Notes under the pieces: generated by a model
The model's database searches: none
What the model was told of the DNA's origin: nothing
The model's input: the letters and a program-made list of their open reading frames with translations, nothing else
From: an uncultured Pelagibacteraceae bacterium
Lineage (GTDB): Bacteria; Pseudomonadota; Alphaproteobacteria; Pelagibacterales; Pelagibacteraceae
Length of the DNA: 58,674 bases
NCBI GenBank assembly: GCA_902558205.1
Contig: CACECY010000001.1
Coordinates: 1-58,674 of the forward strand
Direction of reading: 5' to 3'
Program-made: the position numbers and the translations under genes
In this document: positions 33,287-48,697 of the stretch, piece by piece
Numbering within the stretch: the stretch's first letter is position 1
Layout of the letters: every line of letters starts with the position of its first letter

Positions 33287-35188
33287 TTAATGAACTATTT
33301 TTGGTTTAAGGCCCATTACATCCATAGCCGAACCTTTGTCATCCTCAGCTTTTAAATCTTGTTTATCTTTAGGATATACATTCTTATTAAGAATATTTTC
33401 AATTTCTTCACCGGTTAAAGTTTCATAAGTCATAAGAGCCTTTGCAATCTTATGTAAATCGTCAATTTTTTCAGTTAAAATTTCTTTAGCTTTATTATAA
33501 CCTTCATCTATAAGAACTCTAATTTCTTTATCTATTTTTTGAGCTACTTCCTCTGAGACTGATTGTGTCTGTGTTACTGATCTACCTAAAAAGACTTCTT
33601 CTTGATTTTCGCCATATTCAATTGGACCCATTTCCTCACTCATTCCATATTTTGTTACCATAGCTCTAGCAAGTTGAGTAGCTTGATTTATATCCGACCC
33701 AGATCCCCCTCCAGCTCCAGTTGATATGTTGTCTTTACCAAAAATTACTTCTTCTGCAACTCTTCCTCCAAAACATACTGCCAATCTAGCTTTAAGGTAC
33801 TTAATTGAATGACCATGTTTATCCCTCTCTGGTAAATTCATAACCATACCTAGCGCTCTACCTCTTGGAATTATTGTTGCCTTATGTATGGGGTCATAGC
33901 TTGGCATATTAAAAGATACCAGAGCATGACCACCTTCATGGTAAGCAGTTAGTTTTTTTTCATCCTCAGTCATTACCATTGAACGTCTCTCTGATCCCAT
34001 CATGACTTTATCTTTGGCATCCTCAAATTCTTGTAAAGTAACAATTCTCTTATTTTTTCTTGCTGCTAATAACGCAGCCTCATTAACTATATTTGCTAAA
34101 TCTGCGCCTGAAAATCCAGGCGTCCCTCTAGCAATAGTTCTTAAATTTACGTCAGGTGCCATTTTTATTTTCTTAACATGAACTTTTAAGATTTTTTCTC
34201 TTCCAATAATATCTGGATTTGAAACAACAACCTGTCTATCAAATCTTCCTGGTCTTAATAAAGCTGGATCAAGTACATCTGGTCTATTTGTAGCTGCGAT
34301 AATAATTACACCCTCATTCGTATCAAAACCGTCCATCTCAACTAGCAGCTGGTTTAATGTTTGCTCTCTTTCGTCATTACCACCTCCTAAACCTGCTCCT
34401 CTACTTCTTCCTACAGCATCAATTTCATCTATGAATATAATACATGGAGAATTTTTCTTTCCTTGCTCAAACATATCTCTTACTCTAGAAGCGCCAACTC
34501 CTACAAACATTTCAACAAAGTCAGATCCTGAAATTGTAAAAAAAGGTACACCTGCTTCTCCAGCTATAGCTCTAGCTAATAAAGTTTTTCCAGTACCCGG
34601 AGGACCTACAAGTAAAGCACCTCTGGGAATTTTCCCACCAAGCCTACTAAATTTTTTTGGATCTTTTAAAAACTCTACAATCTCCTCGACTTCCTCTTTG
34701 GCTTCTTCTACACCAGCAACATCATTAAATGTTACTTTACCCTTTAATTCATTCATCATCTTAGCTTTAGATCTACCGAAACCCATCGCGCCACCTTTTC
34801 CACCTTGCATTTGACGCATAAAAAAGATCCATACAGCAATTAATAACAGCATTGGAAACCACGATAGTAAGACACCAAATAATGATGGCATTTTTTCTTC
34901 TAATGGTGCTGCAGAAATACTTACACCTTTATCTGATAATTTTTCTATTAGATTTGGATCATTAGGCGCATAAGTTGAAAAATTATTACCATTCGAATAA
35001 ACACCTTTTATATTATTTCCTTGAATTTCAACTTTTAATATTTCCCCATTTTCGACAGAAGTTAAAAATTCTGAAAAAATAATTTGATTTCCACCTCTTA
35101 CATTTGACTGTGGATTTTTAAACATGTTGTAAAGACCAATAGTCAAAAAAACTATTATTGCCCACATTGCTATGTTTTTAAAATTCAT
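33287..35188 (-). CDS. ftsH: ATP-dependent zinc metalloprotease FtsH
   Basis: Two TM helices, [12 protein letters not shown], second region of homology, HEGGH zinc motif. Confidence 0.98.
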
Positions 35189-40448: not shown

Positions 40449-41123
40449 TTAAATAATTGATAGAAATCTTTTCGAAAAACTTTCTAATTTTTGTGAATAT
40501 TTTCTACTATCATTATTAAACCTATTATAGGCAACTACCGCTGGAATCGCTGCAAGCAAACCAAGCGCTGTAGCAAACAATGCCTCAGCAATACCTGGTG
40601 CAACAATAGCAAGACTGGTATTTCTTGAGATAGCTATTGACTGAAAAGAATTCATTATTCCCCAAACTGTTCCAAACAATCCTATAAATGGTGCAGTAGA
40701 TCCTACTGTGGCTAGAAAAGTAAAACCTTTTTCAATTTTTGAAATTTGTTTTTCAATTCCAACTTCTAAAATTCCACTCATTTTTTCTGCTAAATTTGTT
40801 TTTGATTTTGATTTTAAAAGCCCTTGCATAGACTCTTTAAATAAAGATGTCATAGGGTCCTCAACTTGTGATGGTAAACTGTTGTAAAAGGTTTCTGCAG
40901 ATTTTGATCTCCAAAATTTTTCCTCAAATTCTTCAGATGAAATATTTATTTTTTTAAATAACTTGAATTTATCAATAATAATTGCCCAAGAGTATATTGA
41001 ACAAACTATTAATGAAATAATTACAGTTTTAACAATGATGTCTGCCCTTAAAAAAAGGTTTATTAGAGAAAAATCTGCACTAGACGCCAAACCTACCGCT
41101 TGAGATGATATATCTGCTTCCAT
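40449..41123 (-). CDS. tolQ: TolQ
   Basis: APFIGLFGTVWGIM and PGIAEALFATALGL motifs. Confidence 0.96.
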   Translation of the reverse strand: MEADISSQAVGLASSADFSLINLFLRADIIVKTVIISLIVCSIYSWAIIIDKFKLFKKINISSEEFEEKFWRSKSAETFYNSLPSQVEDPMTSLFKESMQGLLKSKSKTNLAEKMSGILEVGIEKQISKIEKGFTFLATVGSTAPFIGLFGTVWGIMNSFQSIAISRNTSLAIVAPGIAEALFATALGLLAAIPAVVAYNRFNNDSRKYSQKLESFSKRFLSII

Positions 41124-41177
41124 TTTTAACCTATCACACTGAAATGTGTCATCAATTTGTTCTTAAAAACTCTTATA

Positions 41178-41672
41178 CTATTCCTCTTTTCTAAATGTTT
41201 CATAATAATAACTAGCAATTAAGATTGCATCTGCTTTATTTGAGTCTTTTTTTTTTGCTAAATTTAATGAAAAATAAGGAAATATTTCTATCGCCTTTGT
41301 CCTACTGGCATCTTTTTGTGAATTAATTAAATTAAAATATTTTTTCCATTTAGCTGGTCTTACAAAATACATTGGAAGTTGCATTGCAGAGCATATGCCT
41401 TTTAATATTCCAAAAGACTGACCAAAATTAAACATACTAGTAACACCTTGACCAGGCATAGCCGATACTTGTTCGATTATCACTCTAATATCCCTCTTAT
41501 CGATATGTTTAATTCTTTTAATGAATTCATTATATATTTGAGATCCATTCACCTGTTTTTTATTTTTTTTCCCCTCAATCATAGTTGGCATTTCAATTAC
41601 ATCTAAAATTTTTCCATCCTTAAAGAAACAAATTGATCCAGATATACCGGGGTCTATTCCAATTATAAGCAT
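41178..41672 (-). CDS. RuvC-fold Holliday junction resolvase, MOC1/phage-like subtype
   Basis: IIGIDPG, VIIEQ, GVTSMFNFG, P.KWKKYF, KDASR...FP and KKDSNKADAILIA; sits in the ruvC slot after yebC. Confidence 0.8.
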   Translation of the reverse strand: MLIIGIDPGISGSICFFKDGKILDVIEMPTMIEGKKNKKQVNGSQIYNEFIKRIKHIDKRDIRVIIEQVSAMPGQGVTSMFNFGQSFGILKGICSAMQLPMYFVRPAKWKKYFNLINSQKDASRTKAIEIFPYFSLNLAKKKDSNKADAILIASYYYETFRKEE

Positions 41673-42397
41673 CAGTTATTCCGAATTTCTACATTAGAAT
41701 AAATATTTTGGACATCATCATTATCCTCTAATGTATCAAAAAAATCTATTAATTTTTCTTGTTGATCGTCAGAAATCTTAACACTATTCAGGGGAATCCA
41801 TTCAATTTCAGTTGATACGAAATTTTCAATTTTTTTTTCTAAATTTTTTTTTACATTATAAATCTCGTTAACTGAACACTGTATCTCGTGGATATTATCT
41901 TTTGTTATACATTCATCTGCACCTGCTTCTATGGCTAATTCAAGAATCTGCTCCTCAGAAATCTCAGATTTATTAATCTTGATAACACCCATTTGATTGA
42001 AATTGTGTGAGGCAGACCCTTGGGTACCAAGACTCCCACCAGCTTTTTGAAAAATTGTTCTTATATTAGATGCTGTTCTGTTTTTATTATCAGTCAATGT
42101 TTCAACAATTACAGCAACCTTGTCGGGCCCAAAGCCCTCATACCTCAAATTTTCAAAATTTGAGGAAGTATTTATTGAAGATTTATCTATAGCTCGTTCA
42201 ATATTATCTTTAGGCATATTTGCAGATCTTGCAGCTTGGATTGCTGATCTTAATCTTGGGTTCATTGCTGGATCTTTATCTCCTAGTTTAGCTGCAACTG
42301 TAATTTCTTTTGATAGTTTAGAAAAAATTTTTGATCTTTGCTTGTCTGCTTTTCCTTTTTTATGCTTTATACCTGCCCAATGTGAATGACCCGCCAT
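41672..42397 (-). CDS. yebC: YebC/PmpR family protein
   Basis: MAGHSHWAGIKHKK, NPRLR, YEGFGP, TDNKNRT and DDVQNIYSN motifs. Confidence 0.96.
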   Translation of the reverse strand: MAGHSHWAGIKHKKGKADKQRSKIFSKLSKEITVAAKLGDKDPAMNPRLRSAIQAARSANMPKDNIERAIDKSSINTSSNFENLRYEGFGPDKVAVIVETLTDNKNRTASNIRTIFQKAGGSLGTQGSASHNFNQMGVIKINKSEISEEQILELAIEAGADECITKDNIHEIQCSVNEIYNVKKNLEKKIENFVSTEIEWIPLNSVKISDDQQEKLIDFFDTLEDNDDVQNIYSNVEIRNN

Positions 42398-42400
42398 AAT

Positions 42401-43207
42401 CTAAAATGTATTTTTTAACTGTCCACCGAAGATATAACTTTCTACGTGATTTGAAAGACCAGTTTTTAAATCACAATCAACTATTACACCACTTAAAGTA
42501 GCTTCGCCAACAGCAGGGAAATGTTTAACAGAACTTTCTCTAAAAAATCGATTAATTGAGTTTTGTTTATTCATTCCGATAACGGAGTCATAATCGCCAC
42601 ACATCCCTGCATCTGTTTGATAGGCTGTACCATTTTTTAAAATGCGTGCATCGTTAGTTGGTATGTGAGTGTGTGTTCCAACAACTAATGTGGCCTTACC
42701 ATCAAAATAATGACCAATTGCATTTTTTTCACTCGTAATTTCTCCATGAAAATCAACAATTAACAAATCATAATGTTCTTTTAAAACATGATCTTTCAAA
42801 AATTTTTTTGAAGCTTCAAAGACATCTTCGCATTTTTTCATAAATATATTTCCCATTAAGTTTAAAACTCCAATATTTATATTTTCAGATGTTTTATAAA
42901 TTTCAAATCCTTTCCCAGGTGACGGTTCAAATAAATTTAATGGTCTTAAAAGTCTATTTTCTTTATTTATATAATTCATTATTTCTTTTTGATCCCAAAC
43001 ATGATTACCAGATGTAATTACATTTACTCCACAGTTAAAAAAATCTTTGCATGTTTTTTCTGTTAGACCCACCCCAGGTTCTGCAGAATTTTCTCCATTC
43101 ACGATTACAAAATCAATTTTTTTTTTATCTATTTCTGACCTTAAATTATTCAAAATTTTTGAACATCCAGAAATCCCAACCACATCTCCTAAAAATAAAA
43201 TTCTCAT
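42401..43207 (-). CDS. YmdB-like (TIGR00282) metallophosphoesterase (start likely ATG 43207)
   Basis: FLGDVVG, NGEN, SGNHVWD, DFHGEITSEK and GTHTH motifs. Confidence 0.92.
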   Translation of the reverse strand: MRILFLGDVVGISGCSKILNNLRSEIDKKKIDFVIVNGENSAEPGVGLTEKTCKDFFNCGVNVITSGNHVWDQKEIMNYINKENRLLRPLNLFEPSPGKGFEIYKTSENINIGVLNLMGNIFMKKCEDVFEASKKFLKDHVLKEHYDLLIVDFHGEITSEKNAIGHYFDGKATLVVGTHTHIPTNDARILKNGTAYQTDAGMCGDYDSVIGMNKQNSINRFFRESSVKHFPAVGEATLSGVIVDCDLKTGLSNHVESYIFGGQLKNTF

Positions 43208-43749
43208 TCTAAAACTGTTTTTTCTGTAATAATACAATCTAGTTTTTGATCATATTTATCTATAGGTATATTTTTAACTTTTTGAAACGAAAAACCTACA
43301 CCTATTTTAAATAACTTATTTTTGATTTTTCTTTTTGATAGATATCTATCGTAATAACCCCCACCATACCCAAGTCTATTCAAATGATAATCAAAACCAA
43401 CTAAAGGAATCAATAAAATATTTGGATACATTTTTTTTCCTGAAATTGGTTCGGGAATACCATATTTATTAACTTTTAAAGGATCACTCTTGGACCATTT
43501 AAAAAAATTCATTTCATTGTTTTTTGAAACTTTTGGAAGTGAAAAAATGTAATTTTTTTTCTCTAGTTCTTCTAATATATTCAAAATTTCAATTTCAAAG
43601 TTAAATGGATAATAACCTCCAATAATTTTTGACCGTAATTTTTTTTTTTCTAATAATTTTAAAAGTTTAATTGCGCTAATAGAAAATTTTTTTGAGTAAT
43701 TTTTTTTTCTTAAACTAATTAATTTTTTTCTAATAGACGATTTATTCAC
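43204..43749 (-). CDS. ygfA: 5-formyltetrahydrofolate cyclo-ligase
   Basis: YGIPEP, PLVGFD, RLGYGGGYYDR and D..LD.IITE motifs. Confidence 0.93.
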   Translation of the reverse strand: MNKSSIRKKLISLRKKNYSKKFSISAIKLLKLLEKKKLRSKIIGGYYPFNFEIEILNILEELEKKNYIFSLPKVSKNNEMNFFKWSKSDPLKVNKYGIPEPISGKKMYPNILLIPLVGFDYHLNRLGYGGGYYDRYLSKRKIKNKLFKIGVGFSFQKVKNIPIDKYDQKLDCIITEKTVLE

Positions 43750-46516: not shown

Positions 46517-47520
46517 CAATAAAAATTGGAATAAATGGAATGGGACGGATAGGTAGAATGGTTTTACGTTCTATAATTGAAAAAGATAATAAAAAATTTG
46601 AAATTAAACATATTAATAATCGAACAGGACCAGAGGCTTGTTCAGCTTTAATAAAATATGATTCTATTCATGGTAGATTAAATGCTGAAATAAAATTCGA
46701 TGATAATCATATAGTTATTAATGATAAGAAAATTTCATTCAGCCAAGAAACAAAACTGGAGAAAATAAATTGGAAAAATTTTGATGTTGATTATGTATTT
46801 GAATGTACTGGAAAATTTAATTCAAAAGAAGCTCTTCTTGCCCACATAAATAATGGTGCAAAAAAAGTGATTGTTTCGGCTCCATGTAAAAATGCAGATA
46901 AAACTATAGTATTCGGTGTTAATGAAAGTGAGATTCAAAAAAAAGATAAAATAATTTCTGCAGCATCGTGTACTACGAACTGTTTAGCACCAGTAGCCTA
47001 TGTTTTAGATAATAAATTTAAAATTGAAAAAGGATTTATGACAACCATACATGCTTTTACCAGTGATCAAAGAATATTAGATAATTCACATAAAGACCCA
47101 AGAAGAGCAAGATCTGCAAATCAATCAATAGTTCCGACATCCACTGGAGCTTCAAAAGCCATTGGAGAAATCATACCCTCTTTAAAAGGAAAACTCGAGG
47201 GTGTTGCTATGAGGGTACCAACGCCAAATGTTTCTTTAGTAGAATTAGTATTTTGTACAAAAGAAAATATAACTAAGGACGCGATAAATAATGCATTTAA
47301 AGAGTATATAAAAATACAAAAAAATTATGTTTTAGATATTACACATGAAAAATTAGTTTCAATTGATTTTAATCATAATCCAGCCTCATCAATAATTGAT
47401 GCATCTCTTACTAATGTGGTAGGTAGCAATATGGGAAAAATTTCAGCCTGGTATGATAATGAATGGGGTTTTTCTAATAGAATGTGTGATATCACAGAAT
47501 TTATTCATAATAATTCTTAA
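46513..47520 (+). CDS. gap: Type I glyceraldehyde-3-phosphate dehydrogenase
   Basis: GINGMGRIGR, ASCTTNCLAP and WYDNEWG motifs. Confidence 0.96.
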   Translation: MTIKIGINGMGRIGRMVLRSIIEKDNKKFEIKHINNRTGPEACSALIKYDSIHGRLNAEIKFDDNHIVINDKKISFSQETKLEKINWKNFDVDYVFECTGKFNSKEALLAHINNGAKKVIVSAPCKNADKTIVFGVNESEIQKKDKIISAASCTTNCLAPVAYVLDNKFKIEKGFMTTIHAFTSDQRILDNSHKDPRRARSANQSIVPTSTGASKAIGEIIPSLKGKLEGVAMRVPTPNVSLVELVFCTKENITKDAINNAFKEYIKIQKNYVLDITHEKLVSIDFNHNPASSIIDASLTNVVGSNMGKISAWYDNEWGFSNRMCDITEFIHNNS

Positions 47521-48697
47521 TGAATAGTATTCAAGATCAGCAAAACCTGAATGGTAAAAAAGTTTTGTTACGGTTAGATTTAAATGTTCCTTTAAAAGAG
47601 GGAATAATAAAAGATGAAACAAGAATAAATAAGATCATTCCAATCCTAAATTTTTTATTACAAAAAAAAGCAAAAATTATAATCCTATCCCATGTTGGGA
47701 GGCCAAAAGGTAAAGTAAATCCAGAATTAACTATGAGGCCAATTTGTGAAAATTTAAAGAAAAAATTAATGGAAAAATTAATTTAATAACTGAAGATATA
47801 AGAAAAATTAAAGATAAAAATTTATTTAAAAATTTAGATGAAAACGTTTTAATTTTGGAAAATATTAGATTCTATTCAGAAGAGGAAAATAATGATTTAA
47901 ATTTTGCTAAACATTTGGCAAGTTTTGGTGATATTTATGTAAATGATGCTTTTTCTTGTTCTCACAGATCTCATGCATCAGTCACAAATATTACAAAATT
48001 CTTACCCTCCTACGCTGGTCTTCAACTCGAGTCTGAAGTGAATGCTCTTCAAAAAGTTACTACGAATATCAAAAAACCCATCACTTGTATTATTGGAGGA
48101 TCTAAAATTTCTACAAAAATTGGCATAATTGAAAATTTAATTCCAAAATTTGATAATATTATTTTTGTTGGTGGAATGGCTAATAATATTTTAAAATTTA
48201 AAAAACTTGCAATCGGTAAATCAATTTATGAAAAAAACTGTGATGAAATTATTAGAAAGATTTTTGATACTTCTAAAAAATATTCCTGCTCTATTACATA
48301 TCCTGAAGATGTAATTATTGGAAAAGAAGTTGAAGCTAAGCCAATTGTAAAAGATTTAGCTCAAGTTAATGATGATGATATAATTTTAGATATAGGTCCA
48401 AAAACTATAAGAAATATAGATAGTTTAATAAGTACAAGTAAAACTATTTTATGGAATGGTCCGGCTGGATATTTTGAAAATCCTGATTTTGCCAATGGCA
48501 GTTATGAAATAGCTAAATCTATTGTTAAAAATTTCAAATCAAATTCAATTTATTCAGTTGCAGGGGGTGGAGATACTATTGCGGTGATTAATAAAATTAA
48601 TGCAATTAATGATTTCAATTTTGTTTCAACTGCAGGGGGAGCTTTTTTAGAATATCTTGAAGGAAAAATACTTCCTGGTATAAGCGCACTTAATTAA
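47520..48697 (+). CDS. pgk: Phosphoglycerate kinase, frameshifted at the A6 run 47760-47765
   Basis: RLDLNVP and SHVGRP in the first frame; -1 frame from 47765 reads INGKINLI...LENIRF...NDAFS.SHR...GGGDT...STAGGAFLE. Confidence 0.93.

Follow-up and report, generated by a model that had tools for sequence, protein, structure and literature searches.

Chloroplast MOC1, the phage resolvases of PHROG 1770, canonical RuvC and the RusA protein of Escherichia coli are the described systems to which the locus analyzed here can be compared. Solved structures of MOC1 are available (PDB 6kvn, 6kvo and 6lct for NtMOC1; 6is8, 6jrf and 8kfr for ZmMOC1); as described in PMC7078210, the inactive NtMOC1 enzyme is mutated at D116, E175, D253 and E258, and D183 is required for cleavage. 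According to Table 1 of PMC7076466, moss and Arabidopsis possess MOC1 and RECG and lack RuvAB, and Chlamydomonas has MOC1 and no RecG. In E. coli, RusA is reported to substitute for RuvABC provided that RecG is present (PMC5055574).

The MOC1/phage enzyme family is itself known and has already been recognized in phages. Full-text searches of the literature found no report of a MOC1-type gene or of ruvAB loss in SAR11, and the string 'ruv' is absent from the main text of PMC4053759, PMC3448164, PMC7542561, PMC3815206 and PMC6343036, the supplements of which may list ruv genes. Databases label the protein simply 'RuvC', by which the swap is concealed; the near homologues carry either this name or 'crossover junction endodeoxyribonuclease [Candidatus Pelagibacter sp.]', which marks the source genome as SAR11-type.

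The gene between yebC and tolQ and its protein product

The window, that is, the whole stretch of DNA that was analyzed (58,674 nucleotides), belongs to a genome of 627 kb that is 54% complete. On its minus strand, at 41178..41672, it encodes a 164-aa MOC1/phage-type RuvC-like nuclease, a predicted Holliday junction resolvase; the plus strand of the same segment is full of stop codons. As the original prediction had it, this is the sole ORF of at least 60 aa between yebC (41672..42397, minus strand; TACO1/YebC, Pfam Transcrip_reg, 4e-56), the upstream anchor of the ruvCAB slot, and tolQ (40449..41123, minus strand; MotA_ExbB, 5e-37), the downstream anchor, and the details of the junctions were also read correctly: the ATG of the gene overlaps the TGA stop of yebC by one base (TGATG), and the gap to tolQ is 54 bp. 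This spacer (41124..41177, minus strand) is the site of ruvA-ruvB-ybgC in other alphaproteobacteria, and ybgC is kept there in one genus of the same family (g2, below). ORFs for tolR, tolA and tolB and a pal-like ORF come after tolQ, and the genes for 5-FTHF cyclo-ligase and ymdB (42401..43749, minus strand) lie upstream of yebC, a context that is the same in all lineages compared. No phage genes flank the resolvase gene. A promoter scan performed at chance level (20 found, 24.7 expected), and relatives made up only a small part of the RNA runs, in short contigs. Elsewhere in the window, at 47520-48697, a phosphoglycerate-kinase-like gene is divided into two ORFs of 88 and 280 aa, which might reflect a frameshift or an assembly error.

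The ancestral arrangement was assessed in 20 regions hand-picked around the best ruvB matches in other alphaproteobacteria, with the order judged by eye from ORF starts. The order yebC-ruvC-ruvA-ruvB, originally given as the usual one, was found in 13 of these regions and continued to tolQ in 11. Given this gene order in the ruvB-bearing relatives, the resolvase gene stands in the former place of ruvC-ruvA-ruvB. The original prediction extended the replaced block to ybgC; the replacement holds for ruvC-ruvA-ruvB, whereas ybgC, albeit absent from the locus, was not swapped out, because it adjoins the resolvase gene downstream in g2 and a relocated ybgC-like thioesterase gene (43% identity) is present on another contig of the source genome (G000:C9:2980-3402). 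An ORF beside that gene, on the other strand, presumably encodes a uracil-DNA-glycosylase-like protein, to judge from a motif.

The assignment of the protein to the MOC1/phage type rather than to canonical RuvC is borne out by PHROG, PDB and NCBIfam searches, by fold comparison and by the phylogenetic tree. The phrog_1770 profile ('Holliday junction resolvase') matches residues 1-160 over profile positions 4-151 of 158 (1.5e-35), and the nine best matches in a sequence search of the PDB are all MOC1, from 1.3e-13 (NtMOC1) to 3.7e-8, with the RuvC of phage bIL67 (0.06) and bacterial RuvC (0.23) both marginal. By contrast, the protein has no match to the Pfam RuvC family (PF02075), the only Pfam match being a weak one to DUF3882 (0.0017), and scores 14.4 bits against the NCBIfam RuvC model, far below the cut-off of 163. 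An AlphaFold2 model built from a 97-row alignment (pLDDT 91.8) is predicted to be closest to MOC1, nine entries of which rank first (Z 21.7-23.4; rmsd down to 1.7 A, over 159 residues, for a protein with 28% identity), compared with Z 15-17.1 for RuvC, including 15.5 for bIL67 RuvC; the Foldseek ranking agrees. With canonical RuvC (PF02075, PRK00039), the protein shares the RNase H fold (Z ~17), the N-terminal G-x-D-P-G motif and the position after yebC, but the identity is 17-19%, the family cut-offs are far above its scores, the spacing of the C-terminal acids differs, and no ruvA or ruvB partner was found in the order.

The catalytic residues also follow MOC1. D7, E67, D143 and D148 align with D116, E175, D253 and E258 of NtMOC1, and all 119 near homologues have them unchanged; across the broader set of 97 rows, D7 and E67 never vary, 79 rows retain D143, and position 148 has D in 63 rows and E in 34. 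The C-terminal motif quoted in the original prediction is present in the translation, and its acids are spaced as D143-x4-D148, the MOC1 type, in contrast to the canonical D-x2-D (DAADALA in the RuvC locus L157). The base-recognition loop corresponds to residues 70-79 (SAMPGQGVTS), in which the MOC1 residues Y180, D183, Q186 and G187 are represented by M72, Q75, T78 and S79. Q75 is found in all 119 near homologues and in 90 of the 97 alignment rows. Because Q75 stands in place of D183, the cytosine reader by which plant MOC1 is strictly defined, we file the protein as MOC1-like and not as plant MOC1.

Modeled as a homodimer, the protein scored 0.58 compared with 0.00 for the best of three controls, with at least 98% of the contacts in agreement between runs and pLDDT of at least 86, a result that may reflect likeness to the solved MOC1 dimers; among solved pairs, 20 of 30 attain the mark used, as against 1 of 23 single chains. 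The predicted interface comprises residues 70-98, and the predicted dimer would form via the same helix and loop as in MOC1.

Distribution of the gene and of ruvABC

The order was sampled by 150 genomes at least 90% complete, 137 from the family of the source genome (f1) and 13 from its sister family (f2), to which the source genome was added for a total of 151. The resolvase gene is present as a single copy in 133 of the 137 f1 genomes and in none of the 13 f2 genomes; of the four f1 genomes without it, three also lack yebC and in one yebC is cut at a contig end. The gene context was read for 34 of the 134 matches, the loci of the genus g1 being mostly the best-scoring ones: the order is yebC-gene-tolQ in 31 loci of g1 and yebC-gene-ybgC-tolQ in two loci of the genus g2 (L051 and L052), and the remaining context (G116, a half match) is broken by a scaffold gap of Ns. 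Two unpublished genomes, G069 and G182, contribute one each to the tallies, and no claim depends solely on them. Nine longer forms, nearly all of them single-contig, in which the protein is joined to YebC or TolQ, were disregarded because they probably stem from frameshifts in the assemblies.

The protein database holds at least 8000 homologues of the 164-aa protein, and compared with 29 same-genus loci the gene shows a median dN/dS of 0.08 (maximum 0.12), comparable to the flanking yebC (0.06) and tolQ (0.07) and indicative of strong purifying selection, these values being rough since dS is near saturation. Given these homologues, the near-ubiquity of the gene in its family (133 of 137 genomes) and the low dN/dS, the ORF is not a chance one. 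Outside this family, the protein has matches in 3 of 248 alphaproteobacterial genomes, in phage- or mobile-looking contexts and not beside yebC.

The loss of ruvAB from the lineage, part of the original prediction, stands: ruvB was found in none of the 151 genomes by a search that was positive in 10 of 10 control bacteria, and ruvA did not exceed the cut-off in any of five near-complete genomes. Canonical RuvC above the cut-off and RusA were likewise each found in 0 of 151 genomes. The 54% complete source genome itself yielded neither ruvB nor RuvC above the cut-off anywhere. Several weak candidates were rejected: the sole PF02075 match in the order (G149) is the same MOC1-type gene; a ruvA match in G064 (18 bits over 32 positions) is far below the cut-off; and of three weak RuvB_N matches in the source genome, one (contig C16) is DnaX-like, one (window 33287-35188) is FtsH, and the third, on contig C37, was likewise not accepted as RuvB.

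A search for recG was positive in 146 of the 150 near-complete genomes, with full-length matches of 600-656 bits, just under the cut-off of 659; recG was not found in the source genome, which is 54% complete. RuvX/YqgF is present in all five near-complete genomes tested. In a few single-contig genomes (G054, G044, G137 and G146), recG is split or carries in-frame stops, for which sequencing errors are the likely reason. A second recG-like match near recG, probably mfd, occurs in all 12 recG-bearing f2 genomes and in five genomes from two further orders described below; near-complete f1 genomes have a single recG-like match, which suggests loss of mfd in f1.

RuvAB is nearly universal elsewhere in the class. 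In a class-wide sample, ruvB is present in 239 of 251 genomes, and three of the misses are from f1, which leaves 239 of 248 outside it. Among the nine ruvB-negative genomes outside f1, four carry a phage-type nuclease in the slot. Three others (G191, G241 and G353) were rejected as true losses and read as assembly gaps: G191 and G241 have a canonical ruvC after yebC, with the G191 contig ending inside ruvA, and the G353 contig ends inside yebC. The remaining two, G167 (L160) and G392 (L060), are small genomes with no resolvase after yebC, and at L060 no ORF of at least 40 aa was found in the 1.5 kb downstream.

Occupants of the same slot in other lineages

In f2, all 13 genomes encode a PD-(D/E)xK protein of 123-127 aa between yebC and tolQ; it is found in 0 of the 137 f1 genomes. 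This protein matches phrog_244 (~1e-20), exceeds the PDDEXK_15 cut-off, matches Hjc weakly and is 50% identical to the product of a Roseobacter phage gene. In the order of G175, where ruvB is found in 0 of 51 genomes, a PD-(D/E)xK protein of ~97-113 aa (phrog_2002) occupies the space between yebC and tolQ in all 30 loci read, which come from 49 genomes with yebC. Examples of these Hjc-like mini-nucleases in f2 and the order of G175 are found at L049:1017-1397, L059:2022-2315 and L056:1128-1469. In the order of G196, the cluster members of which are labeled Rhodobiaceae/Hyphomicrobiales, ruvB is found in 0 of 15 genomes; among 14 yebC loci, 12 continue with a PDDEXK_15 protein of 168-170 aa (in one case no more than its beginning), another is truncated, and the last is L113, considered below. 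The PDDEXK_15 nuclease after yebC is represented in the family f48 by L057:945-1451 and L110-L120. The PD-(D/E)xK types share only 23-26% identity with the f2 type. In f48, the locus continues with (ybgC)-tilS without tolQ, and L143 leads into an ftsH-like ORF, so that the tol-pal block seems to have been moved or lost. All five genomes examined from the orders of G175 and G196 carry recG. The HIMB59 lineage has been argued not to be part of SAR11 (PMC3815206).

The last type of occupant, in a sub-lineage of the ruvB-negative order of G196, is a 165-aa gene related to T4 endonuclease VII and followed by ybgC (L113:706-1203, on G454:C13; L145-L148). Its product exceeds the PF02945 cut-off and matches phrog_423 (2e-26) and, among PDB entries, T4 endonuclease VII (1.4e-5); in the alignment with the latter, most of the zinc-binding cysteines appear to be missing from the slot gene. 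Because the G454 bin is mixed and contains yebC twice, the claim is carried by metagenome contigs, all four of which show the arrangement again (81-98% identity; five contigs in all). A relative with 51% identity is encoded in a 77-kb viral contig. The close relatives of this lineage hold a PD-(D/E)xK gene in the slot.

Altogether, at least five genes of three folds (MOC1/RuvC-like, three Hjc-like types of PD-(D/E)xK, and T4 endonuclease VII-like) occupy the slot in three alphaproteobacterial orders. The filling of one slot by three unrelated resolvase folds is the strongest evidence for a resolvase function. On balance, it is somewhat more likely than not that streamlined free-living marine bacteria have repeatedly lost RuvABC and acquired a stand-alone phage resolvase in exactly the same slot, with turnover of the slot still under way inside one lineage; a single enzyme of ~100-170 aa together with RecG would then be the normal way of finishing recombination.

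Proposed function, alternative explanations and origin

The MOC1-like phage-type nuclease probably acts as a Holliday junction resolvase in place of RuvABC. After RecA has formed a four-way junction, the branch point would be shifted by RecG, the probable motor, or by spontaneous migration. Two subunits would dimerize via helix 77-96, with loop 70-79 entering the junction, and each active site (D7, E67, D143, D148 and Mg2+) would nick one of two opposite strands, the nicks then being sealed by ligase; the homodimer would thus cut without RuvAB. Since D183 is replaced by Q75, the cut-site preference is probably unlike the C|C of plant MOC1, and cytosine-specific cutting is not expected.

In its setting, with RuvAB absent and RecG present, the SAR11 lineage resembles land plants, although here the gene is a bacterial chromosomal one in the ruvC slot. 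The retention of recG says little about coupling between the two proteins because almost all bacteria keep it (PMC5055574), and the occurrence of MOC1 without RecG in Chlamydomonas indicates that such coupling is not obligatory. As a functional model, we propose by analogy the E. coli RusA-RecG pair, in which a stand-alone phage-type resolvase can take over from RuvABC when RecG is there; RusA differs in that it belongs to another family, is normally silent and is known as a laboratory suppressor, in contrast to a swap fixed in natural lineages. Canonical RuvC performs poorly without RuvAB, so self-sufficient phage enzymes would be favored once RuvAB is lost, and insertion behind yebC would preserve the expression of the old operon.

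The protein could instead be a broad branched-DNA nuclease that acts on forks, flaps and Y-junctions in fork repair, with Holliday junctions mostly avoided or left to RecG and RuvX/YqgF. The greater promiscuity reported for phage RuvC proteins compared with bacterial ones (PMC3864405) and the replaced specificity residue would be compatible with such an activity, whereas the fold is nearest to MOC1, a true resolvase (Z 23 vs 15.5 for bIL67 RuvC), the dimer is predicted to be symmetric, and all five slot occupants belong to families labeled as resolvases. RuvX, found in all five genomes tested, might provide a second resolvase, but it does not track the loss of ruvABC since 10 of 10 bacterial controls, all with ruvB, have it too. 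We consider this explanation unlikely.

The question of where the presumed resolvase came from bears on a second alternative, namely that the resident RuvC diverged very rapidly in place after the loss of ruvAB, with no import. The gene occupies the exact ruvC position, and its base composition (GC 0.289 vs 0.293 for the genome; GC3 0.21) is host-like, as would also be expected of an imported gene after long residence. In a quick maximum-likelihood tree of 70 rows, the 13 canonical RuvC sequences group together (SH-aLRT 100), set off by a branch of ~6 substitutions per site. The SAR11 protein lies outside this group, contrary to what membership of an alphaproteobacterial RuvC clade would entail, and the eight SAR11 rows cluster (95) amid phage and environmental sequences; plant MOC1 is not represented in the trees. 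An AU test on 34 of the 70 rows (the other 36 were dropped for speed) did not reject a tree in which SAR11 and RuvC were forced together (p-AU 0.15), because there is no way to place the long RuvC branch, so that the tree alone is no proof of transfer. In the sequence searches, 95 of 96 fetched IMG/VR loci match the protein, the best with 41-44% identity and E 1e-33 in tblastn, whereas the control RuvC loci gave no better than E 0.12. Given also the MOC1-type spacing D-x4-D instead of D-x2-D and the imported unrelated folds that fill the slot in other lineages, in-place divergence appears very improbable.

Thus, a phage origin of the resolvase gene, as originally proposed, is likely insofar as its nearest named relatives are phage genes; no close donor, pelagiphage or otherwise, emerged, the best viral identity being 41-44% and none of the best viral relatives being a named pelagiphage. 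Among named phages, 69 records match, of which the best 40 are ~29-48% identical, and one is annotated 'cd22992 MOC1'. The PHROG 1770 resolvases of phages such as Salmonella phage epsilon15 (p24) and Planktothrix phage PaV-LD (ORF119L) have the MPGQG loop in common with the SAR11 protein, which is 33-48% identical to its counterparts in named phages; unlike these genes, the SAR11 gene is a fixed, single-copy, host-ameliorated core gene without phage neighbors, and none of the 96 fetched IMG/VR loci contains a match to yebC or tolQ.

A third alternative takes the gene for a neutral phage leftover, or a passenger, at a site prone to insertion, with no bearing on the loss of ruvABC. The slot has turned over several times, also among members of a single genus-level group (endonuclease VII vs the PD-(D/E)xK gene of type C, with yebC 82-84% identical). 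This alternative is nevertheless hardly credible in view of the single-copy presence of the gene in 133 of the 137 f1 genomes, with the misses accounted for by missing or truncated yebC, a dN/dS like that of its neighbors, flanks free of phage genes, and the fact that every slot occupant is a resolvase-family nuclease.

Recombination rates in SAR11 are reported to be among the highest in bacteria (PMC7542561), yet ruvB is found in none of the 151 genomes, and the small gene described here is a candidate for the missing last step. As a cellular relative of chloroplast MOC1 with an altered specificity residue, its product would lend itself to the study of how resolvases recognize sequence. Unrelated phage resolvases that have repeatedly come to occupy one and the same slot would make a clear natural example of convergent non-orthologous displacement as genomes were streamlined. 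If the proposed replacement is true, a stand-alone resolvase together with RecG may shape the high recombination rates of these very abundant cells.
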